A DNA stretch of 64,000 nt from an uncultured Rickettsiales bacterium (GCA_964639985.1 CAZXHG010000012.1:1254-65253), one strand, 5' to 3'; shown: positions 8,167 through 56,989, counted from the first letter of the stretch. Made by a program: numbers and translations. The notes: a model not told the origin generated them from the letters alone.

Positions 8167-8244
8167 GCTGTGCGGTTCGCGGCAGGTGAACAGGCGGGGG
8201 GCCGGGATCGGGCGGAGGTCCGCCGGGAGGAGGGGAGCACACGC

Positions 8245-31130: not shown

Positions 31131-31137
31131 CGCCCCC

Positions 31138-32091: not shown

Positions 32092-35000
32092 TCAAACGAC
32101 GCGAAGATGCGCCCTGGCGGCGGCCGCGCCGGGAGGAACCAGACCGTGCTGGTCGAGCAGCTGGTGGAGAGCCTCCCCTTGATGAGTCCCTTCCACTTCC
32201 AGGGCCTGGGGAGGTTGCCCAGGGGCCAGAACCGACGGCTCGATTCCCAGCGCTGCCCAGGCGCTGTTCAACCAGGCGAGGGTCTGCTCGAACCCGCCCC
32301 CGCGCGGTAGAGCCTCCGGGGGCAGGCTCGAGCGGGCTGCCTCCTGGAGGTCCGAGACGCGCTGCTGCAGGATGCCGCGGAGCTGCCGCAGGACATCCGT
32401 GGTCGAATGGAAGCTACCTGTACCCGCCTCCAGCACCTCCAGCGCCCGGTCCGTGGCCTCGCTCGCGGCGGCAAGACCCTCGAGCGAGCCGAGCGGGTCG
32501 GTCAGCAGGTGCCGACTGCTCTGGTCGGCTTCCATGAGGGACATCATCGGCTCATCGTCCGGGCACAGCCACAGGAAGTCCTTGAGCGGCGGCTTCTGGG
32601 GTCCGTCGAGCGCGAGGCGAGAACGCCTGTCGAGGATCGCCTCGATGGCCTGGCTCGACTCCAGGGCGACGGCCAGGTCGTCCCAGTGGCGTTCGACGAG
32701 GAGCGCCTCGAGGAATGCGGAGTAGCTGTCGCGTCGATGGGTCGGGATGGCCTCGAGCACGGTCGACATTCGCTTCCGAGCGTGCTGGGTCAGCTCCATC
32801 CTCACCTTGTCGACCGACTGCTGGAGCTTGCTCACCCCGCGATGTGAAGCGAGGATCACGTTCGTCGTGTCCCGGGCCTGGCTTGCCTCGAGGGCGTCCC
32901 CGAGGTCGAACAGGTCCAGCGTGCCCTTGCGAGCTCGCGTCAGCCGGTTGGCCAGTCGCTTCACACCGAGCACCCGGCTGCCGGCCACCAGTGTTGCGAG
33001 ATCCTCCAGCAGCGGCGTGGCCCGTTCCCTGATCTCCTCGAGCACGGCCTCGGCCCGTGCGAGGATTCGAGCCTCGATCTGATCCACGGGCATGCTGCGA
33101 TCGATCTCGAGGCCATCGCGAATCTCCGCGGGGACCGATTCGAGATGAGCCATCCAGTCCGCCTGCTTCTCCGCATCCTGGATGATCGCCCGATCTGCAC
33201 TGGAGCAGAGCCGCTCACCACCCGCGAGACTCTGCACGCCGCTGTAGTTCTCGGCGATCAGCTCTTCCAGCCTGGGAGCCCACCGTGTCCGCGTGGTTTC
33301 GGTGGCGAACCGCAGGCGGTCGGTCAGGTCCCGGGCCCGGCCCCGCAGGTGATCCCAGGCCGCCGGGCCGAGATGCCGGACCACGAAGCGCCCCGCGGAG
33401 CCCTCCAGCCATCGAGTGCAGTCTCCGATCCCCTCGGTGGCAGCCCCATACCAGGCCTCGGCCGGAAAGGACGTCAGGGCTGTCGCAGCCGATCGACACC
33501 GCTTCATGCCATCCAGCAGCAGCGCCTGCGCCAGGTCACTCTGCGCGTCGAGGCCCATGGTGGCCAGGTGCTCGACAGCAGGGGCAGCGGGGATCCCCTC
33601 CCATGCCTGCTGGAGGCTGCCGAGCAGGGCTTTCGGGTCGATATCCTGCTCGGTGTCGCGTCCCGTGGAGGGCCACGGCGGAATCCGGCTCTCGCCGGCC
33701 AGCGTATCCAGCCAGCACAGGGCCTCGTGGGCCAGGCGGTCGTGCCGCTCCAGCTCCGCCCGGTGGCGAGTGAACGTGAGTCCGTCGACCCGGAGGTGGA
33801 CGTCATCCGCTCCATCGGTGACCGGTGGAGCCCCGTGGGCAACCTCCGTCGCGTGTCTCTCCGCAGCCGTCAGCGCCTCGAATCCCTGCGAGGCCGAGAT
33901 GCGCAGCCGCCTGGAGACCTGCCCCAGGTCCCCCCACCACGAGGGAAACGGAGGCCGACGGCCCGCGAGATCTTCGATTTCCAGCGCCGTGGCATGGGCC
34001 AGTTGCGCGACCTGATCTCGTGCCCCGATGACCTCGTCGCCCGATCCTCCTTCCTCGATGACTCGCCGTCTCCTCGCATCGCAGGCCTCGGCGTCCGCCC
34101 TCGGACGGCAGCCTAGGAGATAGTGCTCGGGCAGGCCGTCCAGCGCCGGGTCGATCAGCAGTCGGTACGCCTCCTGCACGCAGAGAAAGTCGTCGGGCTC
34201 CACCTGGATCCGGCGTGTTACGAGCTCCGGCAAGGAGCCCAGGCTTGCACCGCTCGTGGCCAGCGACAGCCACCGCTCGACCTCCGTGGGAGGGAGGCCC
34301 TCGAGCCACGCCGCGACATCTGCCGAGTCGTCCCCGATGGCGTGGCGCAGCATCGCCGGGGCATCCAGCGGGCCCGCTCCGGCTGGAAGTCCCAGCAGAC
34401 CCACCGGGCCGCACAGATCGGGATTCCAGATGAGCCCCTGAACCACCTGCGGGTGGGCCCACAACGCCGCCAGCAGATCGCCGATCGTGTCGTCGACCTC
34501 GAGGATGTCCGCCACGTCGGACCGCTCGCCCGATTCGAGGACCTCCAGCAGGATCTCCAGCGCGGCCGTGGGTGTCCTGGCGAGCGCCTGGCAGAGGTCG
34601 GGATCTCCCAGCTGATCCGCCAGCTCGAGCTCGATCAGCCGGCGCACGAATCCTGGAATGCGCACACACAGGTCGACCACGGTCTGGCCTGGATCGGCGA
34701 TGAGCTGCTCCAGCTCCCGGAGCAGCGCCTGGATGTCGGGTGGGAGAGGCGGCTCACATGACGAGGGGCGCCAGTCGTCCAGCGAGACGAAGGGGACCTT
34801 GCCGATGGTCGACAGGTACTCGACGAAGGGTCCGGGGAGCTCGACACAGCGCCCCGCCGCTGCGTCGACGCCGACGGTCAACAGCACGCTGGCCGGCGCG
34901 ATGATCGCCACGCGGTCCTTGAAATGCAGCCCGTCCAGGGGGAGGGTGTGGGAGCCAGCGCCCAGCTGATGGCTCCACAGGCTCTCCGCACCGCCGGCCT

Positions 35001-35667
35001 GGAGGCGCCAGCGCACGATGGTCAGGGGCACCCCGAGGTCACCGGCCGAGGCGTCGACCCTCGCCTTGATGTGGGGCGGCCGTCCGCCGATACCAGCATG
35101 GAAGTGCGCGTGGATGGTGCAGGCCGCCGGCCCGAGCCAGCTCGCGGCCGAGGGTCCCACCACGCCGTCGCGGATCGGGGTGGCGACCTCTTCCCTCCAG
35201 CCGCCTCGTTCCCACGCGAGCGGGTCTTCTTCGCAAGGCAGGTCGGTGGGCGGGACGACGCCGTCCAGCGTGAACCACCGTTGCTCGACGGAACCGAGGG
35301 GCCACCGCGTCATGCAGACGCTGCCCGGGATACCTCCAGCGATCACCCCTTCCGGTTCGTCCGTGGTGTCGATCTCCGCCTGCGTCGAGAAATCGAACCG
35401 CCATCGCTCCAGACATCGATGGTTCGAACGCAGCTCCACCTCGAACGGGCCCGAACCGGGGGCCGGTAGCAGTGCCAGGGTTCGACCACTCGGGAGCGAA
35501 AGCGCTTCTTCGAGATCGCCGTCGGGAACCGGCAGCCTGGCACCACTCTTCCCGCCAGCCCACCGTGTGCCCCGAACCCAGATCGACAGGGGAATGTCCA
35601 CCGCCCCGGGCAAGCGCATCACCAGGACGCCGAGGTCACGGTGCCAGTGCCATCGCGCGTAGGTCAT
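32092..35667 (-). CDS. Very large hypothetical protein (1191 aa), first gene of the GTPase-centred array
   Basis: Uninterrupted ORF with strong GC3 bias. Helical Ala/Leu-rich C-terminal two thirds. No recognisable catalytic motif. Confidence 0.55.
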   Translation of the reverse strand: MTYARWHWHRDLGVLVMRLPGAVDIPLSIWVRGTRWAGGKSGARLPVPDGDLEEALSLPSGRTLALLPAPGSGPFEVELRSNHRCLERWRFDFSTQAEIDTTDEPEGVIAGGIPGSVCMTRWPLGSVEQRWFTLDGVVPPTDLPCEEDPLAWERGGWREEVATPIRDGVVGPSAASWLGPAACTIHAHFHAGIGGRPPHIKARVDASAGDLGVPLTIVRWRLQAGGAESLWSHQLGAGSHTLPLDGLHFKDRVAIIAPASVLLTVGVDAAAGRCVELPGPFVEYLSTIGKVPFVSLDDWRPSSCEPPLPPDIQALLRELEQLIADPGQTVVDLCVRIPGFVRRLIELELADQLGDPDLCQALARTPTAALEILLEVLESGERSDVADILEVDDTIGDLLAALWAHPQVVQGLIWNPDLCGPVGLLGLPAGAGPLDAPAMLRHAIGDDSADVAAWLEGLPPTEVERWLSLATSGASLGSLPELVTRRIQVEPDDFLCVQEAYRLLIDPALDGLPEHYLLGCRPRADAEACDARRRRVIEEGGSGDEVIGARDQVAQLAHATALEIEDLAGRRPPFPSWWGDLGQVSRRLRISASQGFEALTAAERHATEVAHGAPPVTDGADDVHLRVDGLTFTRHRAELERHDRLAHEALCWLDTLAGESRIPPWPSTGRDTEQDIDPKALLGSLQQAWEGIPAAPAVEHLATMGLDAQSDLAQALLLDGMKRCRSAATALTSFPAEAWYGAATEGIGDCTRWLEGSAGRFVVRHLGPAAWDHLRGRARDLTDRLRFATETTRTRWAPRLEELIAENYSGVQSLAGGERLCSSADRAIIQDAEKQADWMAHLESVPAEIRDGLEIDRSMPVDQIEARILARAEAVLEEIRERATPLLEDLATLVAGSRVLGVKRLANRLTRARKGTLDLFDLGDALEASQARDTTNVILASHRGVSKLQQSVDKVRMELTQHARKRMSTVLEAIPTHRRDSYSAFLEALLVERHWDDLAVALESSQAIEAILDRRSRLALDGPQKPPLKDFLWLCPDDEPMMSLMEADQSSRHLLTDPLGSLEGLAAASEATDRALEVLEAGTGSFHSTTDVLRQLRGILQQRVSDLQEAARSSLPPEALPRGGGFEQTLAWLNSAWAALGIEPSVLAPGQPPQALEVEGTHQGEALHQLLDQHGLVPPGAAAARAHLRVV

Positions 35668-35804: not shown

Positions 35805-36575
35805 TCAGAGAGATCGGAATCGATGGATCAGGTCGGCTCGGTGCCGAATGAACTCGGGGTCGAAGCGCATGTCGGGGTCACGCGGACCTGACAGGGGATT
35901 CACCGCCTGATGAGCGACGCGAGCTGGCCGGGGTCCGAGCATCACGATGCGGTCCCCGAGGAACAGCGCCTCCTCGATGTCGTGGGTGACGAACAGCATC
36001 ATCTTCGGCTCTTCGTCGAGCAGCGCGCAGAGCTCTTCCTGGATGCGCTGCTTGGTGTGCGTGTCGAGCGCCCCGAAGGGCTCGTCCATCAGCAGGATGC
36101 GTGGCCCACTGGCCAGCGTGCGGGCCAGCGCAACCCGCTGGCGCATGCCGCCGGAGAGCTGGTCGGGATACTTGTCCTCGTGACCGGTCAGCCCCACGAG
36201 GTCGATGTACCGGCGAATCCGATCCTCGACTTCGGGTGAGGGAGCTCCCTGCATGGACAGCCCGAAAGCCACGTTCTGCCGCACGTCGAGCCACGGAAAC
36301 GACGTGTAGGCCTGGAACACCATCCCCCTGTCCGTACCGGGTTCCGTGATGGTCTTGTCATCCAGGCGCACCCGGCCCCGTGTAGGTGTCTGCAGTCCGG
36401 CGACCAGATACAGCAAGCTGCTCTTTCCACACCCCGATGGACCGAGGATGACCAGCGTCTCGGTGCCCGACACCTCGAGGTCGATGTCCTGGAGGACGAA
36501 GTCCTCCGACCTGGCCCCATCCTCGTAGGTGAACCAGACAGATTCGAAACCCAGCCTCGGCGTCTGTTCGCTCAT
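35805..36575 (-). CDS. ABC transporter ATP-binding protein (nitrate/sulfonate/taurine SsuB/TauB family)
   Basis: Walker A GPSGCGKSS. Signature LSGGMRQRVALARTL. Walker B LLMDEPFGALD. H-loop VTHD. Confidence 0.85.
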   Translation of the reverse strand: MSEQTPRLGFESVWFTYEDGARSEDFVLQDIDLEVSGTETLVILGPSGCGKSSLLYLVAGLQTPTRGRVRLDDKTITEPGTDRGMVFQAYTSFPWLDVRQNVAFGLSMQGAPSPEVEDRIRRYIDLVGLTGHEDKYPDQLSGGMRQRVALARTLASGPRILLMDEPFGALDTHTKQRIQEELCALLDEEPKMMLFVTHDIEEALFLGDRIVMLGPRPARVAHQAVNPLSGPRDPDMRFDPEFIRHRADLIHRFRSL

Positions 36576-37339
36576 CGTTGCCGCACCGCCCAGGGAAAGA
36601 ACACGCCCTTGAGTGCGTTGAAGATCTGGTCGTAGAGAACCCCGATCAACCCGATGGTCAGGATCGCGGCGAACACCTCCGCGGTGTTCAGGTACCTCTG
36701 CGACTCGATGATGACGTGGCCAATTCCGCTCGCCGCTGCCACCAGTTCAGCGACCACCAGGTAGGACCAGGCCCAGCCGATACACACACGTAGCGCGTCG
36801 TAGATGCCGGGGAGAGACGCCGGCAGCATGACGTGGGTCAGGCGCTGCAGCGGGGTCAGCCCGAGGGTCGACGACAGGTCCAGGTAGGTCCTGGGCACGG
36901 CCAGTGCCGCGTCTCGGACCATGACGGTCAGCTGAAAGAACACCCCTAGGAAGATCACCGCGATCTTCTGGGGGTTGCCGATACCGATCCACAGGATGCA
37001 CAACGGGACCAGGGCGGGCACGGGCAGGTAGCGGAGAAATCCGACCAGGGGATCGACGAACCGCTGAGCGCGGACGGAGGAGCCCGTCCAGAGACCGAGG
37101 GGCACTGCCAGCAAGGCGGCGAGAATGAAACCCGCCTGCACGCGGTAGATGCTGGCGCCGATGTCGTACAGGAAGTGCTCGTCGACGAAGAGCCGGAGCA
37201 GCGCCTGCACCACGGAGAGGGGGCTGGGCAGGAAGGTGGGCGGGATGGTGCCCGAAAGGGTGAGCGCCGTCCACACGACGAGCACCACACCGAACGCCAC
37301 GACCGCGCTGATCCTGTTGCTGTCGAGTCGCCGCGTCAT
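36572..37339 (-). CDS. ABC transporter permease (SsuC/TauC-like)
   Basis: Six hydrophobic segments. EAA-like region ALAVPRTYLDLSSTLGLTPLQRLTHVMLPASLP. 4-nt overlaps with neighbours. Confidence 0.8.
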   Translation of the reverse strand: MTRRLDSNRISAVVAFGVVLVVWTALTLSGTIPPTFLPSPLSVVQALLRLFVDEHFLYDIGASIYRVQAGFILAALLAVPLGLWTGSSVRAQRFVDPLVGFLRYLPVPALVPLCILWIGIGNPQKIAVIFLGVFFQLTVMVRDAALAVPRTYLDLSSTLGLTPLQRLTHVMLPASLPGIYDALRVCIGWAWSYLVVAELVAAASGIGHVIIESQRYLNTAEVFAAILTIGLIGVLYDQIFNALKGVFFPWAVRQR

Positions 37340-37351
37340 CTCCGTACACCC

Positions 37352-38341
37352 CTAGAGGTAGTCATGGGCCACCACCTCGGGCAGGGGATGGAAGGCGACG
37401 GTGACGCCGTTGTTGAGGTAGATGCGGTTGATCGAGGCCACCAGATCGAGGATCTCACCCGGGGCGTCCAGCGTGCCCATGATCGCCGCGCTGTCGACCG
37501 TGTCGAGGTAGCGCAGTCCACTGATCATGGCGGCGAATTCCTCCGTTTCCAGGCCGTAGTGTGCGGCCATCAGGGCGTTTGCCTGATCGGGGTTTTCGCG
37601 CCAGAAATGGACCGCGTCGTTCCAGCTGGCCACCACCGCCCGTACGTCGTCGCCGCGATCGCGGAGCGTGGATGGTCGGAAGGCGAGGACGTCGACGATC
37701 ACCGTGTCGCGTCCGGCTGAGGAGGCCAGCAGATGGCCTCCCTCGCGCTGCGCTGCGTTGGTCAGCCAGGGCTCCCAGGTCACCGCGGCATCGACCTTGC
37801 CGGCCACGAATGCGGCCCCGGCATCGCCGGAGTCCATGTGGCGGCCGTCGATGTCGTCGATGGTCATGCCCCCACGATCCAGGTGGTATAGCAGGAAGAA
37901 GTGGCTGGGTGTGGCGGGCTGAAAGGCAACCGTCCTGCCTCGCAGCGAGCCCACCGAACGGATTTCTTCCGCAGCGACGATGCCGTCGCCGCCCTTGCTG
38001 CGGTCCAGCAGCAGCACGGCCACCGACTCGATCCCCTGGTCCACCTGCATCAGGATCGTGTCCAGCGAGGTGGTCTGGCCGTCCACCTCGCCGGCGGCGA
38101 GGGCAGCCCGCATCTCCTCCGCGCCCTTCATCGTGAGCAGCTCGACCTCGACGCCGTGTGATCCGTAGTACCCCTGGTCCTGGGCCAGGTACAGGGGCGC
38201 GAACCCAACCCAGATGTCCGTCGCGATGCGGATCGGCCGGGCGCGGCCCGAGCAACCGTAATCCTCGTAGAGAACGGACAGTCCGAAGGTCCCGAGGACC
38301 GCGGTGAGGGCGAGGAACAGGGCCAAGCGACGGTGACGCAT
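37352..38341 (-). CDS. Periplasmic substrate-binding protein (NMT1/SsuA/TauA-like)
   Basis: Start MRHRRLALFLALTAVLGTFG (signal peptide) inside ORF 37352-38545. NMT1-like fold hallmarks IRIATDIWVGFAPLYLA... Confidence 0.7.
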   Translation of the reverse strand: MRHRRLALFLALTAVLGTFGLSVLYEDYGCSGRARPIRIATDIWVGFAPLYLAQDQGYYGSHGVEVELLTMKGAEEMRAALAAGEVDGQTTSLDTILMQVDQGIESVAVLLLDRSKGGDGIVAAEEIRSVGSLRGRTVAFQPATPSHFFLLYHLDRGGMTIDDIDGRHMDSGDAGAAFVAGKVDAAVTWEPWLTNAAQREGGHLLASSAGRDTVIVDVLAFRPSTLRDRGDDVRAVVASWNDAVHFWRENPDQANALMAAHYGLETEEFAAMISGLRYLDTVDSAAIMGTLDAPGEILDLVASINRIYLNNGVTVAFHPLPEVVAHDYL

Positions 38342-38609
38342 CGGGATTTCTCGGACAGGAGGATTCAGATCTCTTCCAGGTCGCCCTAGCGACGAGGGTT
38401 GCGCGCAGCATACATCGGGCTGGTGCGGGTTGCATCCAGCGCTGATCGACCCCCTCGAATCCCGCTCTCCCCCCGAGGAGTCGACGTCTGTTCTCCGGTA
38501 TACTGCCGCGGGCGAGGTGCGTGGGCGAGGGGCAGCCGTGGCCACGGTTGGCCGGATGCCGGAGCCTCAACCCCAGTGCCTCTCGTCAGGCGGGCGGATA
38601 CTACCGACG

Positions 38610-40480
38610 TGAAAGACCGACCGACCATACTCGGATTGAATGCCGTCTACGGCCAGAGTTCTGCGGCCCTGGTGCGGGACGGTCAACTTGTGGCCGCCGT
38701 GGAGGAGGAGCGGTTCAACCGGATCTCCCACGCCAAGGCAGCCGAGGTGGACAACACCCCCGACCTCCCCTATGCCTCCATCGACTACTGCCTGGACGAG
38801 GCGGGGATCGAGTTCGAGGACATCGATCTGATCGGCTACTCCTTCGACGTCGGTGTGCGCCGTGAGCAGCGAAGTCGGTTGATGGAGTACGGCCCGGTGC
38901 TGCCCGGGGGGTACAAGACACCGGAGGGCGAGCGACGATTCGAGTCGTTCGTGATGCTGGTGCCGGAACTGCTGGCCGCACGCTACGGCTTGCACCCCGG
39001 TGACGTCTGGCGCCGCTTTCGGTTTCTCGAGCACCACCTCTGTCACCTGGCAGCCGCGTACTACGCGTCCCCGTACGACAGCGCCGCGGTAATGGCGATC
39101 GACGGTATCGGCGAGGCTGCCACCGTCTCTTTCGCACGGGCCGAGGGAAACGCACTGACGATCCTGCGCCAGATCGACTACCCCCACTCCGTCGGGTTCA
39201 TCTGGGAGCTGATTACGTCGTTCCTTGGCTTCAGGGGGGACCACGACGAGAGCAAGGTGATGGGACTGGCAGCCTACGGGGATCCTGAGCGGTTTGCCCG
39301 CCAGCTGTCCACGTTCCTGCGCATCACCGCGACCGGAGTCGAGGTGAGCGGATTCAAGCGACAGGACCGGCAGGAACTGCTTCGCCGTGACTACCACGCA
39401 CTGGAACGATATCTCGGTATCCAGCGCCGCCTACCCTACGAACCGTTGGCCTTCGAGGGGTCGAAGCGCGATCACGCCGATCTGGCTGCGGCCTTGCAGC
39501 GGCGGACCGAGGAGGTCTTCCTGCACCTCGGTGGCCTGCTGCACCGGGAGACCGGCGAGAGCCGGCTGGCCATGGCTGGCGGCGTCGCCCTCAACTGCGT
39601 GGCCAATGCACGGTTGGCCGAAGAGGGGCCGTTCGACGAGTTGTGGGTCCAGCCAGCGGCTGGCGACGCCGGGACGAGCCTGGGCGCTGCCTTGCTACTG
39701 CATTGCCATCCCGATCCCCGTCTGGGCGCTGGTGCGGGCCGCGTCCGGATGGACAGCGTCTACCTTGGCCCCGAATTCTCCGATGCCGAGATCAGCAACA
39801 CGTTGTGGCGCTATCGTCTGGTCCACCAGCGAGTGGACGATCCGGCCCGGACCGCAGCCGAGTTGCTCGCCGATGGCAAGATCATCGGCTGGTTCCAGGG
39901 GCGGATGGAATTCGGACCGCGGGCGCTGGGCAACCGCTGCCTGCTCGCGCATCCGGGTCGATACGAGATGCGCGAACGGCTCAACCTGCGCGTCAAGCAT
40001 CGCCACCCTTTCCGTCCATTCTGCCCTACCATGCGCGCCGAAGTGGCGTCCGAGTGGCTCCAATCGAGCCGGCCGGCATGCGACGCGGCGCAGTACATGC
40101 TCGCCGCCTACGCGATCAAGGAGGGACGCCGGGCCGAGATCCCGGCCGTGGTACACGCCGATGGCACGGCCCGGCTACAGGTGCTCCAACGAGAGCAGAA
40201 CCCGCTGTACTACGAACTGATCCGGCACTTCGAGCGGCTGACCGGCCTGCCTTTCGTGCTGAACACTTCGTTCAACGACCGCGAGCCCATCGTCTGTTCG
40301 CCGGATCATGCGGCTGAGTGCTTCCTCAAGACCGACTTCAGCGCCATGTTCCTTGGCCACTACCTTGTCGAGGGCCCCAAGCCCTGGGAGCGAGAGGAGG
40401 GAGAGAGCGCCACTTTCAGCGAGGTGCTCGAGGACTTCTACCGCAGTGGCCACAAGAATCGTGGGGGGGGGGAGCTACCG
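38610..40480 (+). CDS. Carbamoyltransferase (NodU/CmcH family); as given it reads through in frame into the next gene
   Basis: Probable GTG start 38610 (VKDRPTILGLNAVYGQSSAALVRDGQLVAAVEEERFNRISH, the NodU/CmcH N-terminal signature); ORF opens at 38399. C-terminal carbamoyltransferase region ...VLNTSFNDREPIVCSPDHAAECFLKTDFSAMFLGHYLVEG. No stop before ATG 40481 because of a G10 tract. Confidence 0.8.
40463..40472 (+). repeat. G10 homopolymer tract at the carbamoyltransferase / HEPN-kinase junction
   Basis: Ten consecutive G read as GGG GGG GGG G-AG. With G9 the frame becomes ...AGC TAC CGA TGA, placing a TGA stop overlapping ATG 40481. Confidence 0.9.
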
Positions 40481-43174
40481 ATGAGCGATGAACGCTTCGT
40501 GGTCAGTGATCATGCGATGTTCACGGTCGAGCAGTATCCCTTGCCGATCGGGGACGCTGCCAGGGATTTCAATCAGGGTTTCAGGAGTCTGAGCGACCGG
40601 GAACTTCAGAAGCAATGGCGAGACCAGTTCCTCGACTACGTCAACATCGCGGAGGATTGTTTCAGGCTGGCAACCAACGTGATGTTGGCCGAACTGTCCG
40701 TACGAGGTGACCTGGCCGATCTGAGGGAGTTCTTCACCAGCTACATGACCGAGACCATGACACTCGGCAGGTGGATTGACTCCACGTTCATGCTGGCGCA
40801 GAAGCCCACGGCTGACCAGGCGCGGAGTGAGCTGGCCGGAGGACGCTCCAGCGAACCTCGCTTCAGGAACCTGGTCGTCATCGGGTTCCCACGGAAGCAC
40901 AGCCGGCGGCAACATGCCCTCAAGATGCGTGACTATCGCAACAAGGTCGCTCACCGAAAGGGAAAGAGACAGAAAGCCAGACAAACCCCGCTGACAGATA
41001 TCCTGCGGATGCGTGACATCATGCTGGACGTGATGTCCGGCGGATTCTCCTTCCTTCGGCACTTCACACTCATTCAGGTATGCGCAAACGGGCAATGCAG
41101 GTTCATCTCCGACCTGGGTTCCTTCAGGGAATCACCCGTGCCCATCGAGAAGTTGTTCAAACACAATGATCTTGAGGAACTGATCGACGTCAGCAGGAAT
41201 GATGATCTTCTGCTGTTCGACGCCGTCCATAACTCGATCATGACCTTGTTTCCGTTCGTGGTTCTGAATCCGGCAAACAAGAAGGTGCCTGCGGTTTCCT
41301 GTTTGCATACGATTCATGGCATCGATGATCCTGCAGGAGCGACCTTCAGGTATTTCGATGGCGAGACGGACGGAGAGGACTGGCGACCCTCGACTGACCA
41401 GGAGGATCGCGCCCGAGGGTGGTTGCGAACCGTACTGCAAGCGAAGGCGCCGCCCGCAACACGGGGGGTCTTCCTGAGAAATGACCGCTGGCGAGTGCCC
41501 GGGCTCTTCGAACAGAAGATGTACGATACCAGTAGGAGGCAGAACAGGGAGTTGGCGACTCTCACCAGCGATGTTATCCCGGAAGGTACTGATGAGGCAG
41601 ATGTTGTTGGAAAGCCGTACAGGGTTGACGAGTACTTGGGGGAAGGCGCGCACGCGATAGTGTGGGGTGTCAGTGAGGTCGACGACCTCAGTAAGCGCTA
41701 TGCACTCAAGGTACTGCGACTGTGCTACGGGGAGGACAAGGTGCTCTCCCGATTCAAGCGGGAGGCCCGTGTGTTGCGCCGGTACACCATGGACGACAGG
41801 TGGTCTCCCTATCTCATCGATTGCTATGATCACGGATTCAACGAGAATGGCATGCAATGTCAATTGCTCGAAAAGGCGAAGTGGTCTCTCAAGGACAAGA
41901 TCGAGGAGTACGACCGAAGAGGAAACGAGTTGGCGGGGTGGAGCATCCCGCGGTGCATCCGTGAGTTCGATCGGTGCCGGTCAGAGCATCACGCGCGAAA
42001 CGTCGACCTTCTCGTGTCGGTTTTCTTGCGGCTGATGTTCGCCCTGTCGTGTGTCCGGAACATCCTGAGTGCGCTGGAGAAACTGCACGAAGGTGGCGTC
42101 GTGCACAGGGATATCAAGCCAGCGAATATCCTGTTCCTCCAGAGAGGCCAGATCAAGCTTGCCGATCTCGGCGCGTTGCACATTGAGAAGGAGGACTTTG
42201 AACAGACGCCTCTGGACAACATGGGGTCGACCCAGAGAAGCGAGATCATTGGGACCCATGGCTACATGCCACCGAACAGTTTCGAGTTGGCCGAGCCCAG
42301 GAATTTCAAGGCGGATGTCTTCTCTACAGGTGTCGTATTTCGAGAGATCCTGTTCGGGCTGCGTGTTACACCTGAGACCTATTTCAGCGACAGTGAAAAG
42401 GAGGTCAGGGAGTTCGGCAAGCTAGATGACCTGATCGTGGAGCAACTCGCATGGGACGGCGAGATGCTCGTCAGCGGGCTCGTCCAGAGCGCCACCAACC
42501 GCAACAAGGAGCGGCGGTGGAGTTCAACGCGGTTCCTCGACGAGGTCGTTGAATTCGAGAAGAAGTACTGCAAGAAGCTGATGCTGTGGGCAAAACGTCT
42601 GGGGTACTCCCAAGAGGGTACGGGGGCCCTGTTCGTCAGGGCGCTCACCAAGATTGGATTCGAGAACAAGACAGGACGCAATCACTGTTTCCTGTTGCCC
42701 AAGCACCCCGAAAGGGGCGAAACCAGGGAGTGTGTATTCAGGAGGAATGTCTCCAGCTTGAAGTCAACCAGTGTTGCCGCCAGGTTGTACACAAAATACA
42801 ATGTTGGCTCGCAGCAAGGACAGTTGCCACCGGACGCTGACGAACTGGACGTTCTCGAATACCTGGTCGAACACTCGGAAGAGTGCTTCACCGACCTGAT
42901 CGAGCTGGTCACCTATATGTTGGACACCTGTACCGGCTTCTACAATGACTGTCCGGCGCATGAGAAGTCCCGGAGGAACATCTCCAGGCTGCTTAAGAAC
43001 AGGAAGTACACGGACACGAATCCCGCGAAGGAAAGGGTGCGGGAAGTGATCGAGCCCGAGTCCGATGTGCATGGATACCAAGACAGACACCCGCGGCAGG
43101 AGGCCGGCGAAGCCCTCATCCACGCCGTGATGTTCGGCGGTCTCGACCAATCCGTCGAGCCGCAGGAGAGATGA
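40481..43174 (+). CDS. HEPN-like (Rx4H) domain fused to a Ser/Thr protein kinase domain, with unknown middle and C-terminal regions (897 aa)
   Basis: ATG 40481 (MSDERFVV). N-terminal ~165 aa helical with MRDYRNKVAHRKG (Rx4H, as in Abi_2/Swt1/KEN HEPN nucleases). Kinase: glycine loop LGEGAHAIVWG, Lys in YALKVLRL, catalytic HRDIKPANILF, DLG, GTHGYMPPN. Markedly lower GC than flanks. Confidence 0.6.
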   Translation: MSDERFVVSDHAMFTVEQYPLPIGDAARDFNQGFRSLSDRELQKQWRDQFLDYVNIAEDCFRLATNVMLAELSVRGDLADLREFFTSYMTETMTLGRWIDSTFMLAQKPTADQARSELAGGRSSEPRFRNLVVIGFPRKHSRRQHALKMRDYRNKVAHRKGKRQKARQTPLTDILRMRDIMLDVMSGGFSFLRHFTLIQVCANGQCRFISDLGSFRESPVPIEKLFKHNDLEELIDVSRNDDLLLFDAVHNSIMTLFPFVVLNPANKKVPAVSCLHTIHGIDDPAGATFRYFDGETDGEDWRPSTDQEDRARGWLRTVLQAKAPPATRGVFLRNDRWRVPGLFEQKMYDTSRRQNRELATLTSDVIPEGTDEADVVGKPYRVDEYLGEGAHAIVWGVSEVDDLSKRYALKVLRLCYGEDKVLSRFKREARVLRRYTMDDRWSPYLIDCYDHGFNENGMQCQLLEKAKWSLKDKIEEYDRRGNELAGWSIPRCIREFDRCRSEHHARNVDLLVSVFLRLMFALSCVRNILSALEKLHEGGVVHRDIKPANILFLQRGQIKLADLGALHIEKEDFEQTPLDNMGSTQRSEIIGTHGYMPPNSFELAEPRNFKADVFSTGVVFREILFGLRVTPETYFSDSEKEVREFGKLDDLIVEQLAWDGEMLVSGLVQSATNRNKERRWSSTRFLDEVVEFEKKYCKKLMLWAKRLGYSQEGTGALFVRALTKIGFENKTGRNHCFLLPKHPERGETRECVFRRNVSSLKSTSVAARLYTKYNVGSQQGQLPPDADELDVLEYLVEHSEECFTDLIELVTYMLDTCTGFYNDCPAHEKSRRNISRLLKNRKYTDTNPAKERVREVIEPESDVHGYQDRHPRQEAGEALIHAVMFGGLDQSVEPQER

Positions 43175-43177
43175 CCG

Positions 43178-45193
43178 ATGCTGAATACACGTGGAATCCA
43201 GTACCCGGATGACTACCCGCTCGCGATCCAGCGCCTGCAGCAGGCTTTGGTGATGCTGCGCGAGACGAGGGTCGCCCTGCTGGACAAATGGAAGCGCGAC
43301 AACCAGAAATTCCAGGACGAGTTCGTGGTAAAGGAGTCCGGCGGCACGGGTGGCGAGGACGTGCTGCACCTGCCCTTCATCTACGGACTCGAGACGCTGC
43401 TCATGCCCATCGGGTTGATCACGGCGGAGTGCGCAAAGCGCAAGCGGTTGGTGGAAAGCCTGGATGTGCTTGTGCCTGCGCTGAAGGACTTCCGAGTCGA
43501 CGACATCGACGAGAACACGATCAATGATATCAACGGCCTCGTGAAGCAGTTCGACCGGGAGATCGGACCGGCTGTACGCGCCGTCGACTACGAAGGTCTC
43601 AACGCACAGCCGTACTTCAACAAGTGGAACGACGATGCCAACGCATGGGCTACTGCGCTGTTTTTCGATGCCACGGACTACTTGAACTCGGCGGGCCTGA
43701 TCAACCCCGAGCAGTACATCGAACGGGTGAACAACCTATCGATGCTGCTCAAGAAATTTCTCTTTGCGAAGTACGTTGTCGAGTGGAAATCTGACCTGGA
43801 CGAGAACGTCCAGTTGTTCGGATTGACCTGGTACTTCAGCGACGAGTCCCGGCGACGGATCAGTCGATATTTCCAGAAAAGCGGATCCGACTTCGACGGC
43901 CCCGTGGTCCAGGCGTTCATCGAGGACTATTTCGTCTGCGAGACGCGGGCATTCTGCTCCAGGGCCGTCCTGGCGGTCTACGATGTGATCTACGACACCT
44001 TCGGCGATTCGGACATCGCGACCGACGAGATCAAGAAGCTGGTAGGCAGGATCGGGGCGAGGTTCGCCAAGGACCTAGCTCACCGCTATCTCCAGGACAT
44101 GGATAACTCCATCGAGCGAGCCTACTTCGACGATCTGTACCGCACCGACTATCTGGTACAGCTGTGGGGCGTGTACACGTCCTGCCTACACACGGGCATC
44201 ATTGCCGAGAGCCAGGGAGGGGAGGTCGAGATCGATTTGCTCGTCCGCTACCACGACGAGTTCTTGAAGCCTCTGCTCAAGACCATTCGGAGGGAGATTC
44301 GGGACGATCACTCACCCCTGTTCACGACGGTGAAGCCGTTCCTGATCTGGCTGGACGAGCCTGCAGAGATAGAGCCCGCGGACGTCCATCCGGAAGAGAC
44401 GGTGGAGAAGTTGGGGGAGGACCGTTGCCTGGTATTCCCCTACGTCTCCCTGCTCCCGATCATGTTGCGGTCGCTGGCCAACTACGCTGGTGCCCTGAAG
44501 GACATCAAGGATCCGGGGGGCAAGCAGAACGTCCGTCGGATGAGGAACGAAGCCCTCGATTGGATGCACGAGGTCCTGGAAGGTATGACCCAATTCGCCA
44601 TCTCGGACGGGGACGAAGCGGGGCTGTGGGCGTTTTCCGGGCAGTACGAACTGGCCTACACCGCATCCATCGCCGAGGCGCTGACGACCTATGCTTCGCA
44701 GTGTTTCAACGAGGTGGTGGATCTGGGGAGGACCCGGATCGTGGACTTGGCAGAGCCGTTGAGGAAGGCAGGATCGGCAGCTGGAGCGGTCGTATCCGAG
44801 GCAGACTCGGAGGCCGTGCGCGCGTTCAAGGAATTCCGCAAGGTTCTCGACCTGCAGGTCCGACGGATCGTTGCCGAGGAGTTGGACGGTCGTGATCTCC
44901 AGGGGCGGTCAGGTGGGAGCAGCCAGTGGATGGAGATATTCTTCGATATCATCGAGAACAAGGGCAACATGGCGCCTCACTCCAACGACGCCCTGCAGGC
45001 GATGAGGGATCTCATCAGGCTGTCCAAGCGGCTGGATCGGCTGCGGGGGCGCGGAGAACCGGAATGGGAGCAGCTGCGGGATAAGATCAAGTCGGGCTAC
45101 TTCAACAACGAGATAGCCTATGACGTGCTGACCCGGGAGTACCATGGCGACATCGACGACCTGCTGAAGAACAAGACGGACAAGACGAAGTGA
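43178..45193 (+). CDS. Hypothetical protein (671 aa), no recognisable domain; middle gene of the low-GC island
   Basis: Starts 4 nt after the stop of the HEPN-kinase gene. Uninterrupted ORF in the low-GC region. Its TGA overlaps the GTG of the next gene. Confidence 0.55.
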   Translation: MLNTRGIQYPDDYPLAIQRLQQALVMLRETRVALLDKWKRDNQKFQDEFVVKESGGTGGEDVLHLPFIYGLETLLMPIGLITAECAKRKRLVESLDVLVPALKDFRVDDIDENTINDINGLVKQFDREIGPAVRAVDYEGLNAQPYFNKWNDDANAWATALFFDATDYLNSAGLINPEQYIERVNNLSMLLKKFLFAKYVVEWKSDLDENVQLFGLTWYFSDESRRRISRYFQKSGSDFDGPVVQAFIEDYFVCETRAFCSRAVLAVYDVIYDTFGDSDIATDEIKKLVGRIGARFAKDLAHRYLQDMDNSIERAYFDDLYRTDYLVQLWGVYTSCLHTGIIAESQGGEVEIDLLVRYHDEFLKPLLKTIRREIRDDHSPLFTTVKPFLIWLDEPAEIEPADVHPEETVEKLGEDRCLVFPYVSLLPIMLRSLANYAGALKDIKDPGGKQNVRRMRNEALDWMHEVLEGMTQFAISDGDEAGLWAFSGQYELAYTASIAEALTTYASQCFNEVVDLGRTRIVDLAEPLRKAGSAAGAVVSEADSEAVRAFKEFRKVLDLQVRRIVAEELDGRDLQGRSGGSSQWMEIFFDIIENKGNMAPHSNDALQAMRDLIRLSKRLDRLRGRGEPEWEQLRDKIKSGYFNNEIAYDVLTREYHGDIDDLLKNKTDKTK

Positions 45194-46224
45194 ACATCGT
45201 CGCGTATTCGTACAAGGGCGGCTCCGGAAGGACGACCGCGGCGATGAACATCGCCGCCAACCTCTTCCGCCGGGGCAAGATCGTTTGCTGCATCGACTTC
45301 GACATCGGTGCGCCAGGCATGCACATGATCCTGGAAACGACCATTCCGCCGAGGGAAGGCGAAACCGACCTGATCGCTCGGCGGCTCGGTGACGTCTCCC
45401 CGCTTGGAGTGCAGCATTTCTTCAACAACCGTTACCCGCGCCCCGGCGTGGACGAGAGTACGTTCGTCGAGCAGGCGGTGGTCGACTACAAGGAGCATTA
45501 CGCCCAGCTCGCCTGGACGGAAGACGATGCACTCAACAAGAGAGACATGACGCAGGACGCCTTCGACCAGGGCGAGTTGCTGTACCTGGTCGCCTCCCCG
45601 GTTGCCGAATCGATTCGAGCCCTGGATGCCCAGAAGTTCGACATGATGGGATTCCGGCGCCGCTACCGTTCCCTGATGGAGCGGGTCGCCGACTACATCA
45701 ACGACAAGCGCGGCACCGACGAGGTGAGTGCCGAGGACATCTACTTCGTTCTGGATTCGGCGAGTGGCTTGACGCCGTTCAGCCTGCCGGTCCTCTTCCT
45801 GGCGCACGTGGTGCTCGTGTTCTTCCGGTGGAGCCACCAGCACATCGTCGGTACCGAACAGAATGCCGAGATCCTGCACCACAACCTCGACGAGCGGGTC
45901 GACTACTCGAACTGCCGCATCTACAAGGTGGGCTCCTGTTATGTCCCGGCCGGGGACAGCGATACGCTGAATCAGATGAAAGAAGAAGGGGATCTGGCGG
46001 CACGCCGCATCTTCGATCGGGAGACAGAACTTCGGACGGCCCTGGAGTCCGACCGGATGATCCGCTTTATCGATAGCATCCCCGAGCACCCCGCGTTGAA
46101 GTACTACGAGCGAATCGTCGCGCTGGCGATCGACGCGAAGACGAACTACGGCGGTGTCCGCGAGGCGCTGGACAACATCTGCGCACAGCTGGAAGACGAC
46201 CGACTGGTGCTCGACATCGATTGA
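45190..46224 (+). CDS. ParA/MinD-like (SIMIBI) ATPase with degenerate P-loop
   Basis: Deviant Walker A YKGGSGRTTAAMN (KGGxGKT expected; P-loop Lys replaced by Arg). A-prime-like CCIDFDIGAPGMH. GTG start overlaps the upstream TGA (GTGA). Confidence 0.6.
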   Translation: MNIVAYSYKGGSGRTTAAMNIAANLFRRGKIVCCIDFDIGAPGMHMILETTIPPREGETDLIARRLGDVSPLGVQHFFNNRYPRPGVDESTFVEQAVVDYKEHYAQLAWTEDDALNKRDMTQDAFDQGELLYLVASPVAESIRALDAQKFDMMGFRRRYRSLMERVADYINDKRGTDEVSAEDIYFVLDSASGLTPFSLPVLFLAHVVLVFFRWSHQHIVGTEQNAEILHHNLDERVDYSNCRIYKVGSCYVPAGDSDTLNQMKEEGDLAARRIFDRETELRTALESDRMIRFIDSIPEHPALKYYERIVALAIDAKTNYGGVREALDNICAQLEDDRLVLDID

Positions 46225-46253
46225 ACTCGACGACTCTAGCCAGTCGTACTATC

Positions 46254-47282
46254 TCAGCGGACAAAACGGCCCCCCTGGCCGACGTCGTCCGGCGGCGGAT
46301 CCACGCGGTGCAAGCCGCTATCGGCGGCCGCGGCCGCCAGCGTGGCCACCAGTTCGTCGGCGGCGGCAGGCAGGTCGTCGAACAGGTAGCGAGGCAGGAA
46401 CGGGATCAGCTTGAGGGTCAGGTCGGCGTCGATGGCCGCCAGTCGGGCGGCCACAGCTCGGACCTCGAACACGTCGATGTAGCCGGGGACGACCAGGAGT
46501 GAAGGGCGGATCAACTCGACCCGCTCCGCGGGACCGAATTCCGCCCGAAGCCGCTCGATGTTGCGCCACACGCGAGTGTTACCTGTACCGGTGAGGGCAA
46601 GATGGACGGGTTCGGTGCCAGCCTTGAGACCGATGTTGAAGCCACCGCCCGAGTCGTGGACCAGGTGGGCGAATGGCAGCAGGAGATCCCCCGGCGCCGT
46701 CAGGTTGGTCTCGGCGCAGATACGCATCACCCGGTCGGCGTAGCGTTCCCGAACGAGCACGGCGATGCGTGTCACGGCCGCCAGCTGGACATCTGGTGTG
46801 CCCCCACAGAAGCAGACGCACGTCGTACGGTCGTCGATCCAGTCGAGGATCTCGTCGTCGGTGAATCGGGGCTTGGCCGTCTCGGCCATCGTCTTGTGGA
46901 TCCAGTCCTGGCAGAACAGACAGTCGAAGTTGCATCCCGCGGTGAACACCGCGAGGTTACGGCAGCCTGCCTCGACACCGGGACTGACCGCGAAATCAGG
47001 GTACCCGCAACCTGTGGTTCCGGGACACTGCCACGAGGCGATGCAGTTCGCCGGGTGATCGTCGTAGAACCCCATGGCGACCAGCATGTCGTCTTCCGGC
47101 ACAGGTCGTACCGGATCCGGCATGTCGCCAGATTGCCTCAGAGCCTGCCTTCGAGCCTGCTCCACGAGGGGAAGGGCCTGCTTAGGGTCGGTGCGCACGC
47201 AATCGACGCAGCATCCCACCGATCGAGCCACGATCACATCGTGACGACCGCACAGGGCACAGGGGAGAGGGGGGGCGTCCAT
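46254..47282 (-). CDS. Radical SAM enzyme (PflA-activase-like) with N-terminal Cys-rich zinc-ribbon-like motif
   Basis: Start MDAPPLPCALCGRHDVIVARSVGCCVDC. Radical SAM CX3CX2C in AVFTAGCNFDCLFCQDW. Glycine-rich VCFCGGTP. Confidence 0.7.
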   Translation of the reverse strand: MDAPPLPCALCGRHDVIVARSVGCCVDCVRTDPKQALPLVEQARRQALRQSGDMPDPVRPVPEDDMLVAMGFYDDHPANCIASWQCPGTTGCGYPDFAVSPGVEAGCRNLAVFTAGCNFDCLFCQDWIHKTMAETAKPRFTDDEILDWIDDRTTCVCFCGGTPDVQLAAVTRIAVLVRERYADRVMRICAETNLTAPGDLLLPFAHLVHDSGGGFNIGLKAGTEPVHLALTGTGNTRVWRNIERLRAEFGPAERVELIRPSLLVVPGYIDVFEVRAVAARLAAIDADLTLKLIPFLPRYLFDDLPAAADELVATLAAAAADSGLHRVDPPPDDVGQGGRFVR

Positions 47283-47286
47283 CGAT

Positions 47287-47979
47287 CTACCAGAATCCCT
47301 TCCACCACATCGCGAAGATGCTCTGCCACCAGTAGTCCAGGGCCTGGAAGTTCGGCGTGCCGGGAACGCCGGACGTTGCTTCGATGGCAGTCGCAGTTGC
47401 GGCCGTGTCGGCGCCTGCGAGCAGTCGTGTCGGGATGGCAGCGTGTCCGGGATACGGCTCGAACCGGGTGTCCTCGTCCGAATCGAGTTCGGCGCGGGTC
47501 GCCGAACCGAAGAAACGGAAGACGAGCTCGCGCATCTCGCCGTGCAGCTGCGTACGCCGGGCACGGCGCATCGCCGACCACCGCGGTATCTCAGCGCAGA
47601 TCAGATCTGCCAGCCGGCGCGCGGCGAGGTCGCGACGGCCTGGGCGGTATCGCCACTGGTCGGCGACGGAGGCGGTCGCGATGAGGCCGCCCGTCTCGCT
47701 GGCCTGTGAAGCGAGGTCCTGGACGAATTCCGGCCAGGGGCCGCATACGATCCAGGCGCCAGTGTCCGAGAGGTAGGACCGGGTGTTTGTTCCGTGGTCG
47801 AGTGTCACCCGGCCCGGTCCGTCGAGTACCTGTTCCGCAGAACACGCCGATGCCCATGCGCCGGGATCTTCGAGCAACAGGGTCGTCAGATGATGATTGG
47901 CCACCACGACGTGTCGGACGTCATCGTGGTCTATGACCTCGTAACGGCGCCCCTCAACCTTGACTAGGCGAAGCGGCAT
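47287..47979 (-). CDS. Hypothetical protein (230 aa), Trp-rich C-terminus
   Basis: ORF between two radical SAM genes, overlapping both by a few nt. No recognisable motif. Confidence 0.45.
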   Translation of the reverse strand: MPLRLVKVEGRRYEVIDHDDVRHVVVANHHLTTLLLEDPGAWASACSAEQVLDGPGRVTLDHGTNTRSYLSDTGAWIVCGPWPEFVQDLASQASETGGLIATASVADQWRYRPGRRDLAARRLADLICAEIPRWSAMRRARRTQLHGEMRELVFRFFGSATRAELDSDEDTRFEPYPGHAAIPTRLLAGADTAATATAIEATSGVPGTPNFQALDYWWQSIFAMWWKGFW

Positions 47980-49415
47980 GCATCCACCTCGGCGCCGGGG
48001 CCTCTCTCCAGCCGTTGCAGTCGGCCTAGTTCTTCCCGTGCCCTTTTTCGGAGCAAGCCCACGTCCAGATTCGGTCCGTCACCCGTCTGGCTGGTGAACA
48101 GGTTGGCTCTTCCGGTAGTGCTCACCCATCGCTTCGAGAGGATCGATCCAGTGTAGGCCTCGAAGAAGAGCTTCTCCACGTCAGACGGATCGATGCCTGG
48201 ATAGCGAACTACCGACCGCACACCGCTGTACAGCCGGAGGTCGGTGGAGGCCAGGCGGTCCTCGGCCAGGAGAGCCTGGAAGAGCGGCGTTCCGGGAACC
48301 GGGATGAGCAGCGTGAACACGTTGACGCAACCGCGATCCGTGAATTTTTCGGTAGCCCTCAGGCGGCGGTCGAGGCTGGTAGCATCGTCATCGGGCTCGC
48401 CGAGCAGGAACGATGTGGTGGGGAGCATGTCTGCCGCGACGAGCCGGTCCACAGCTCTGAGTGCGGTATCTGCGGCGAGTCCCTTGCTGTACCTGGCCAG
48501 GTTGGACTCCTCCAGCGACTCCACCCCGATCCACATCATCCGGCACCCAGCCTCGTGCAGGAGGGGGAGTAGATCCGCGTGTTGGACCACCCAGGCCGCA
48601 TGCCCGAAACACCACCAGCGGATCTCAAGCGACCGGTCGATCAGACCGCGGCAGATCGCCTCGACGCGGTCGGCACGGACGGTGAACGTGTCGTCCCAGA
48701 TAGACCAGTCGTGGATACCGTGCGTGACCACGCCGTGTTCGACTTCATCCAGCACGGCATCGATCGGTCGGGAGACATACCGTCCCTTGAAGTGTGCCGG
48801 TGTCGCGCAGAACACGCAGCGATGTGGGCAGCCTGTCGCGGTCAGGATGGGGAGGACCGGGAAGACCTCGCTTCCGGGGTCGTCGAGATAGAGGGAACGG
48901 GCGATGCCATAGCTCTCGATCCCTGGAACCAGGCAGGAGAGGCCATCCGCGCGTCGAAATCGAGGGCCATTCACGGGGCTGGGGGCCAGGTGGGAATCCA
49001 TGGCGGCTTCATCTGGAACCAGCCCATCCACGCTCCGGGCATCCTCTGCCGCCAGATCGGGAAAGCGGCGCGGCATGTATCCACCGAGCAGGATCTTCAC
49101 CGTGGGCAGCACCTCTCGTATACCGTGGGACAACTCGAGGTCGTAGGGATATGCTGCGGCGCCCATGAACACGTGTAGGTGGAGTTCCGGGAACGCTCCG
49201 ACGAGCACCAGGTCCGGATCAAGATCCGCCACGCGACTCGCGAGTGTCGGTGCGTCCTCGCGGAGCATCTGCCCGTCGAGGACCGTGACGTCGTGACCAC
49301 GATCCGTCAGCTTGGCGGCAACGCGGCAGGCGCCGTACGGCGGGCTGCTCATCCCCTGCGCGTAGTAGAACCACGAGAGGGCGCGGTTCCAGGCGTTGAC
49401 GAAGACGATCCTCAA
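47964..49415 (-). CDS. B12-binding-domain radical SAM protein (class B)
   Basis: N-terminal Rossmann-like B12-binding region (RIVFVN..., DLVLVGAF, KILLGG). Radical SAM motif LTATGCPHRCVFCATP. Confidence 0.75.
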   Translation of the reverse strand: MRIVFVNAWNRALSWFYYAQGMSSPPYGACRVAAKLTDRGHDVTVLDGQMLREDAPTLASRVADLDPDLVLVGAFPELHLHVFMGAAAYPYDLELSHGIREVLPTVKILLGGYMPRRFPDLAAEDARSVDGLVPDEAAMDSHLAPSPVNGPRFRRADGLSCLVPGIESYGIARSLYLDDPGSEVFPVLPILTATGCPHRCVFCATPAHFKGRYVSRPIDAVLDEVEHGVVTHGIHDWSIWDDTFTVRADRVEAICRGLIDRSLEIRWWCFGHAAWVVQHADLLPLLHEAGCRMMWIGVESLEESNLARYSKGLAADTALRAVDRLVAADMLPTTSFLLGEPDDDATSLDRRLRATEKFTDRGCVNVFTLLIPVPGTPLFQALLAEDRLASTDLRLYSGVRSVVRYPGIDPSDVEKLFFEAYTGSILSKRWVSTTGRANLFTSQTGDGPNLDVGLLRKRAREELGRLQRLERGPGAEVDACRFA

Positions 49416-56975: not shown

Positions 56976-56989
56976 CTCGCCGATGCGGA

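Follow-up and report, generated by a model that had tools for sequence, protein, structure and literature searches.

K is a four-module kinase protein with a conserved architecture

The 64,000-nucleotide stretch of DNA from an uncultured Rickettsiales bacterium (GCA_964639985.1, CAZXHG010000012.1:1254-65253), here called the window, carries on its plus strand a gene, K (40481-43174), whose open reading frame (ORF) is translated into an 897-residue Ser/Thr kinase protein of four modules. Judged from its sequence, K is a catalytically competent Hanks-type Ser/Thr kinase joined to three family-specific modules, one N-terminal and helical, one beta-rich and one C-terminal, and it is followed by a gene without a family, M, and by a gene for a ParA-like ATPase. 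The novelty lies in a Hanks kinase with new accessory modules inside an undescribed conserved cluster; the kinase core itself belongs to a known family. The reading preferred here, to which we give a probability of about 55%, is that K works with M and the ATPase within this cluster, that its N-terminal module forms the sensing or effector end, and that an HEPN-like site is kept in the window.

From the N-terminus, the protein consists of an all-helical domain (residues ~20-197; 40538-41071), a beta-rich middle domain (residues ~198-330; 41072-41470), the kinase domain (residues ~376-690; 41606-42550) and a C-terminal domain specific to the family (residues ~691-897; 42551-43171), all encoded on the plus strand. 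The helical domain is delineated by two alignments (A5 and A6) and by the helices of two low-confidence AlphaFold runs, and its conserved marks are an E-M-P start, an LT..VGLA helix and an FGYW-type helix end. The beta-rich domain displays a conserved L..E....L(S/F)PFVV pattern in which L245 and P258 are invariant, with strands predicted at residues 198-209, at its beginning, by a low-confidence AlphaFold run. The C-terminal domain, defined by alignment A5 and a hidden Markov model (HMM) of the K family, is Cys-rich in the proteobacterial orthologues (CxxC...C...CxGL), and this pattern is partly degenerate in the window.

The kinase domain matches PF00069 with an E-value of 3.2e-22 and 79.6 bits, the cut-off being 31.7, which places K among the Hanks-type Ser/Thr kinases; an insert of ~35 residues precedes helix E. 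An earlier prediction, made from the sequence of the window alone (the original prediction), had located the kinase at ~41610-42480, and the Pfam boundaries of ~41606-42550 agree with it. The set of Hanks residues is complete (G387xG389, K410, E428, H542-R-D544, N549 and D562-L-G), and the catalytic K410, E428, HRD542-544, N549 and D562 are conserved in the K orthologues that bear the N-terminal domain. In a PDB search, the closest solved structures are StkP, PERK and PknA, at ~1e-11. K is very probably an active kinase.

Direct sequence searches did not extend this family. A whole-protein search of 5.8 billion clusters returned only identical copies and generic kinases, an exhaustive phmmer search of 1.84 billion representatives with residues 1-369 found K itself and nothing else, and neither the N-terminal 369 nor the C-terminal 204 residues matched anything in Pfam, PADLOC or the PDB. 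Orthologues were found, after these searches had failed, by synteny through the relatives of the downstream ATPase. Six of them share the module order and the position in the cluster: L020 (917 residues), L091 (932), L092 (948), L022 (1013), L018 (1041) and the frameshifted L089. The five intact proteins align with K of the window from end to end, with an identity of 18-22%, and the family HMM confirms the kinship. The succession of helical N-terminal domain, beta-rich domain, kinase and C-terminal domain is hence confirmed as a conserved architecture, and the domain order of the original prediction (motif-bearing N-terminal domain, uncharacterised middle region, kinase, C-terminal domain) is real, recurring in these six orthologues from Proteobacteria and metagenomes. 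Its estimates of ~220 residues between motif and kinase and of ~200 residues after the kinase are likewise borne out. The Cys pair CANGQC, to which it had drawn attention in the middle region, is absent from every orthologue, and a metal site there is rejected since the cysteines are not conserved.

Two departures from this architecture are seen. The alphaproteobacterial L018 (3926-7048) and L021 (456-1628) carry an additional N-terminal TIR_2 domain (1.9e-19). The Aminicenantes orthologue (L010:6332-8011; also L011 and L017) has 560 residues, begins at the kinase, lacks the N-terminal region and keeps the C-terminal domain, so that the K-family HMM covers it at HMM positions 372-839. In this protein HCN replaces the catalytic HRD, and from its sequence it may be a pseudokinase.

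K, M and a ParA-like ATPase lie in a conserved gene cluster

The cluster around K spans 35805-50326 with at least 10 genes and is present in at least four lineages, namely this window, whose genome the analysis describes as actinobacterium-like, Aminicenantes, Alphaproteobacteria and Gammaproteobacteria. Directly upstream of K, on the plus strand, lies a carbamoyltransferase of the NodU/CmcH type (38612-40480; PF02543 and PF16861). K is followed on the same strand by M (43178-45193), a helical protein of 671 residues that always stands between K and the ATPase, and by the ParA/MinD-like ATPase (45190-46224; CbiA/ParA/MipZ), which has a variant Walker A motif, KGGSGRT, and whose start overlaps the stop of M. 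Beyond it, on the minus strand, are a radical-SAM activase-like gene (46254-47123/47564), a partner gene for a 230-residue protein (47287-47979), a B12-binding radical-SAM gene (47964-49415) and an AdoMetDC-like gene (49412-50326), the radical-SAM and AdoMetDC-like genes being assigned by Pfam and NCBIfam. On the other side, also on the minus strand and divergent from the carbamoyltransferase, lies an ATP-binding cassette (ABC) importer of the SsuA/NMT1 type (35805-38329), with an ATPase (35805-36575), a permease (36572-37339) and a binding protein (37352-~38329).

The carbamoyltransferase overlaps K by 4 nucleotides, a gap of 3 nucleotides separates K from M, and M overlaps the ATPase gene; this tight spacing speaks for coupled expression and probably a complex. 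M matches no Pfam, PADLOC or NCBIfam model, a word search gave one distant homologue, and an HMM of the M family finds M only in loci of the K-M-ATPase system. K, M and the ATPase are likely to constitute a functional module. Carbamoyltransferase orthologues with 52-56% identity lie directly upstream of K in L010, L018, L020, L022, L089 and L091, the importer accompanies the cluster in L010, L020, L022 and L091, and orthologues of the minus-strand partners beyond the ATPase adjoin it in L008, L010, L019, L023 and L089. Gene order is collinear in the Aminicenantes loci L010, L017 and L023; the cluster is rearranged or partial in the alphaproteobacterial metagenome-assembled genomes (MAGs) L018, L021 and L022, the proteobacterial MAG L020, Sedimenticola (L019) and the contigs L007-L009, L089, L091 and L092. 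None of the NCBIfam equivalogs covers any cluster enzyme, and the cluster is previously undescribed by any curated model or searched paper; looking in the literature for the cluster or for KGGVGR yielded nothing of relevance.

The framing of K as a bacterial toxin, offered by the original prediction, is not supported: K is built into this conserved cluster of at least ten genes and is translationally coupled within it. A local dip in G+C content stems from codon positions 1 and 2, with third-position values (GC3) of 0.73 for K, 0.82 for M, 0.84 for the ATPase and 0.81 for the carbamoyltransferase. As GC3 is similar to that of the flanks, recent horizontal transfer is not indicated, and a horizontally acquired defence island is rejected as the principal explanation on this ground and because the genes are fixed in a conserved cluster. 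Promoter and terminator scans found sites no commoner than in shuffled sequence.

Two variants of the surroundings may be recorded. The Aminicenantes cluster contains an inserted KAP-NTPase/pentapeptide gene, which is QatA-like according to PADLOC. A divergent module in L013 and L014-L016 begins with a non-homologous gene of 1052 residues, in ATGA overlap with an upstream carbamoyltransferase fragment. A homologue of M and the ATPase come next, then a small methyltransferase and an AdoMetDC-like gene; the 1052-residue first gene of L014 was ruled out as a K orthologue, as the HMM search found no homology.

The start of K and the poly-G tract

In the window no stop codon lies upstream of K, and a tract of ten G on the plus strand (40463-40472) joins the carbamoyltransferase and K in frame into an ORF of 1591 residues (38399-43174). 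The NCBI record correspondingly holds a fused carbamoyltransferase-K product of 1521 residues, and contig L005 begins with at least ten G, all of which would suit a genuine fusion protein of 1591 (or 1521) residues, with the separate 897-residue gene being an annotation choice. Against this, four contigs (L001-L004) that are otherwise base-for-base identical have nine G, and there the TGA that terminates the carbamoyltransferase overlaps with the ATG of K (ATGA). The same overlap between two separate genes recurs upstream of K in L018, L020, L022 and L091 and upstream of the next gene in L014. The ATG of K follows a strong ribosome-binding site, GGGGGAG, at a distance of 6 nucleotides, and the K orthologues retain an N-terminus of the form M-[ST]-[DE]. 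Homopolymer G runs are error-prone in assembly, and two contigs, L005 and L006, end at the tract or next to it.

A true fusion is therefore very unlikely, and 40481 is taken as the start of K because of the nine-G contigs and the matching ATGA overlaps in these five loci. The fusion seen in the window goes back either to an assembly error in the homopolymer or to slipped-strand variation. The 897-residue product is called, in identical form, on 6 other metagenome contigs, and all copies of K across contigs are identical in sequence.

An HEPN-like motif in the N-terminal domain

The helical domain contains RNKVAH at residues 153-158 (40937-40954, plus strand), located by sequence and orthologue alignment, where the original prediction had expected an Rx4H motif near residue ~150. 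The HEPN survey describes a polar N, D or H after the Arg (PMC3710099), and RNKVAH conforms to the pattern Rx4-6H with such a residue. R[NDH]xxxH occurs with a frequency of 4.9e-4 per residue among the ORFs of the window and of related loci, and about 0.44 occurrences are expected by chance in 897 residues; taken by itself, the motif is therefore not significant.

Seven sequences (the window, L018, L020, L022, L089, L091 and L092) were aligned at the motif, and three further MAFFT modes gave the same column. RNKVAH of the window stands there with RNLVIH in L020 and RNAFQH in L091; L092 has RDAEIN, L089 has KNNLYS, and L018, the TIR-bearing orthologue, and L022 are degenerate. Arg occupies the column in six of the seven sequences, and R-N-x3-H is intact in three (window, L020 and L091). 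Conservation of both residues among homologues, which the original prediction had named as a check, is accordingly partial, the His being kept in 3/7 only. Across the window, L020 and L091, 21 of 226 columns are identical (9%), and R153, N154 and H158 are among them. A neighbour-joining tree built on the kinase and C-terminal domains places the window as sister to the whole proteobacterial group, with L020 and L091 in different subgroups of the latter. On the simplest reading of these sequences, R-N-x3-H would be ancestral and would have been lost at least three times.

A second segment of the phi-R-N type without His, FRNLVVIG (residues 128-135; 40862-40885, plus strand), was seen in the alignments 24 residues upstream of RNKVAH. 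It opens a window-specific insertion of ~24 residues and resembles LRNLVIHG of L020, with which a five-sequence alignment (A2) paired it. The distance from RNKVAH to the downstream FGYW helix, 36 residues compared with 33 in three orthologues, favours RNKVAH as the orthologous copy. A recent tandem duplication of the RN segment has no support at the DNA level, where 17 of 42 nucleotides are identical.

Relatives of the ATPase and a second operon type

The ATPase downstream of M matches NF047398 (KGGVGR-motif AAA ATPase) with 1.3e-20 and 74.6 bits, below the cut-off of 90. In its Walker A motif an Arg takes the place of the canonical Lys, and YSYKGGSGR is invariant in all relatives examined. 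Around distant members, a second conserved operon type is found in the Acidobacteria-like loci L025, L027, L107, L110, L168 and L169 (ATPase at ~8000-10900). Its order is an SsuA-type binding protein, an ABC ATPase, a ~680-residue protein without a family (X), the ATPase, a CHAT protease, a permease and a methyltransferase, sometimes with a ThsA/LmuA-like SIR2 protein at the end; transporter genes are interleaved with genes of immunity-type effectors. Homology between M and the X protein of these CHAT-type operons is not supported (hhalign 1.8%).

Effector-type domains thus recur near this ATPase family, with TIR fused to the L018/L021 orthologue and CHAT and SIR2 beside related ATPases. Together with HEPN, if that identity holds here, TIR, CHAT and SIR2 are the effectors classically associated with conflict systems of prokaryotes. 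The K cluster and its sister operon, in which CHAT or SIR2 proteins stand in the place of the kinase, mix metabolic-looking and immunity-looking parts.

Fold and activity of the N-terminal domain

The HEPN fold is a four-helix up-down bundle of two alpha-hairpins, with the motif at the end of the third helix or the start of the loop between the third and fourth, and with a variable insert between the second and third (PMC3710099). Both low-confidence AlphaFold runs give helices at residues 40-75, 78-105, 142-157/161 and 170-197 with a variable insertion between them, an order that fits HEPN. In these models RNKVAH falls at the end of a predicted helix, with a loop and then a long helix after it. 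D77, at the turn between the first and second helices, is conserved in five of the seven sequences.

A number of results weigh against an HEPN identity. The AlphaFold runs, made on the single sequence, reach mean predicted local distance difference test (pLDDT) values of 33.6 for residues 1-369 and 44.5 for residues 21-198, and are unusable as evidence of fold. At E<=10, Pfam yields no family for the N-terminal domain of the window and nothing HEPN-related for the N-terminal domains of any of the seven orthologous sequences, and PADLOC gives no HEPN match for this domain. Searches of the PDB with phmmer and with two N-domain profiles (A6 and A8) returned nothing relevant, the best profile hit being I-CreI at E 0.31. 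In hhalign, A6 was aligned with the PDB-verified KEN domain of human IRE1 with a probability of 0.1%, which places the domain outside the KEN family. The acidic motif Ex3[KR] in the second helix, frequent in HEPN proteins and absent from some of their families (PMC3710099), has no conserved counterpart here: the putative second helix shows no acidic column that is conserved, E58xxxR62 of the window not being kept. The His of the motif is missing in four of the seven sequences. With two phi-RN segments present, RNKVAH may not be the strict orthologue of RNLVIH and RNAFQH. Finally, the absence of the His in these four sequences and of the whole N-terminal domain in Aminicenantes implies that RNase activity is not essential to the conserved function of the cluster.

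The evidence on the HEPN identity of this domain is therefore divided: the motif column is stable and its helix-end context fits, and the Pfam, PADLOC, PDB and KEN comparisons and the His count do not bear it out. An HEPN fold seems possible, at somewhat less than even odds, and an active RNase in the window is, on the sequence features listed, doubtful.

Interpretation of the module

On the preferred reading, the ParA-like ATPase would serve as a nucleotide switch, M would provide a scaffold, and the two together would assemble or release K. The kinase would then phosphorylate partners in the cluster or K itself, with the N-terminal module as the probable sensing or effector end. Among specific proposals for that module, a kinase-linked HEPN-like domain with putative RNase activity leads, because the motif is intact in the window at a helix end, where HEPN RNases carry their active site.

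The N-terminal helical and beta-rich modules could instead be a non-catalytic unit for sensing or dimerisation, perhaps metabolite-binding, in which the resemblance to HEPN is coincidental; the metabolite could be one made or imported by the cluster, and the R-N-x3-H residues could bind the ligand or be structural. The strongest conservation, in the hydrophobic or structural motifs EMP, LT..VGLA, FGYW and LSPFVV, accords with this, as do a cluster composed mostly of enzymes and a transporter, and the failure of every search to return an HEPN match. The retention of Arg in 6/7 but of His in 3/7, and the ~0.44 occurrences of a single Rx4H expected per protein, point the same way, although among the 9% of columns identical in the window, L020 and L091, three spell R, N and H at HEPN spacing. 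The phi-x-x-phi-R-N context and the helix-end position of the motif also fit HEPN, and TIR, CHAT and SIR2 effector domains recur in homologous or related positions. This alternative is a serious one that we hold to be somewhat improbable.

The strictest form of the HEPN proposal makes the N-terminal domain an active endoRNase whose dimerisation and activity are gated by the kinase, and K the suicide or immunity effector of a conflict system built on the ParA-like ATPase. The intact RNKVAH with Asn after the Arg would suit it, yet no HEPN profile or fold evidence accompanies the motif. The motif is common to L020 and L091 across ~20% identity and looks ancestral, but it is lost in 4/7, and the domain is missing in Aminicenantes. 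Its loss from the TIR-bearing orthologue would fit an effector swap, and CHAT, SIR2 and KAP-NTPase genes adjoin related ATPases; the gene itself is nevertheless fixed in a biosynthesis/transport-like cluster rather than in a variable defence island, with GC3 like the flanks. The link of HEPN proteins to ParA/Soj ATPases in the literature (PMC3710099) speaks for it, and the NCBIfam defence-kinase models, all of which score far below their cut-offs (MAD6 67.7 against 460; PglW 37.8 against 990), speak against. We regard it as unlikely. A purely defensive reading is weakened by the constant tie of the module to the same enzymes and importer.

Less probable again is the combined proposal that the domain is a divergent active HEPN RNase, an order-inverted counterpart of Ire1 and RNase L, and acts as the exchangeable effector (TIR in an alphaproteobacterial orthologue, CHAT or SIR2 in related operons) of an undescribed system that is built on the KGGxGR ParA-like ATPase and M as scaffold and wired to an SsuA-type importer and a radical-SAM / carbamoyltransferase / AdoMetDC pathway. 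In eukaryotes, kinase-gated RNases operate in the unfolded-protein response and the interferon response. If the N-terminal domain were a true HEPN RNase, K would be the first bacterial kinase-HEPN fusion, and the logic of the kinase-gated RNase would have arisen independently or earlier, in the opposite domain order. Whether or not it is an RNase, the locus exposes an undescribed cluster whose core of kinase, helical protein and variant ParA-like ATPase lies among an importer and enzymes.

Comparison with known systems

With Ire1 and RNase L, K shares a kinase fold and an R-N-K-x-x-H motif in one polypeptide (RNKKHH in human IRE1, PDB-verified; RNKVAH in K), the motif lying near a helix end and being followed by a hydrophobic helix. 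As the original prediction held, the order is reversed: the motif domain of K is N-terminal to the kinase, ~220 residues including the beta-rich domain lie between them, and a C-terminal domain is added. K differs further in that it resembles KEN neither in sequence nor by profile (hhalign 0.1%), and in being bacterial, cytoplasmic and embedded in an operon. KEN domains keep the motif in ~95% of their members (PMC3710099), compared with 3/7 in the K family.

Anantharaman et al. 2013 (PMC3710099) describe dyads of ParA/Soj ATPases with HEPN proteins of the MAE_18760 family, some of which are fused to a novel beta-rich domain. By this published description, the dyads resemble K in a helical Rx4H domain, a beta-rich domain and an operon with a SIMIBI ATPase of the ParA/Soj type. 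K, by contrast, matches no Pfam HEPN model, has a kinase and a C-terminal domain fused on, is separated from the ATPase by M (~700 residues), and belongs to a large cluster of enzymes and transporters.

In the vWA-MoxR conflict systems, S/T/Y kinases are coupled to MinD/ParA-like domains (Kaur et al. 2020, PMC7159879). The likeness to K lies in the functional link between a Hanks-type kinase and a MinD/ParA-like NTPase whose P-loop is non-canonical and possibly inactive, and in TIR, CHAT and SIR2 effector-type domains in the wider neighbourhood of the family. The K cluster differs in having no vWA, MoxR or VMAP, in encoding kinase and ATPase as separate genes with M between them, and in its fixed association with carbamoyltransferase, radical-SAM, AdoMetDC and ABC-importer genes.

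With the defence kinases PD-T4-6, MAD6 of MADS, PglW of BREX and Stk2, K shares the generic kinase core, and their partner genes are absent. The best PADLOC matches of the K kinase (PD-T4-6, 5.7e-33; mad6, 2.3e-29) concern this generic core only, and no MADS or BREX partner genes occur in the neighbourhood of K. Kinases of the PknB/StkP type have the catalytic core and all Hanks motifs in common with K, which differs from them in lacking PASTA domains and transmembrane segments, in its family-unique N-terminal, middle and C-terminal modules, and in its gene context.

Other features of the window

Two long ORFs on the minus strand, at 28542-31340 (932 residues) and 32092-35667 (1191 residues), have coding-like GC3 and no Pfam or NCBIfam match, and neither was found beside the cluster in other lineages. 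Further downstream, a minus-strand ORF of 1227 residues (53871-57554) combines an FtsW/RodA domain (residues 332-631) with a penicillin-binding transpeptidase domain (residues 983-1181) and adjoins PknB-like kinase and FHA genes. It may represent a fusion of RodA with a penicillin-binding protein (PBP), or may reflect a missed stop or a frameshift.

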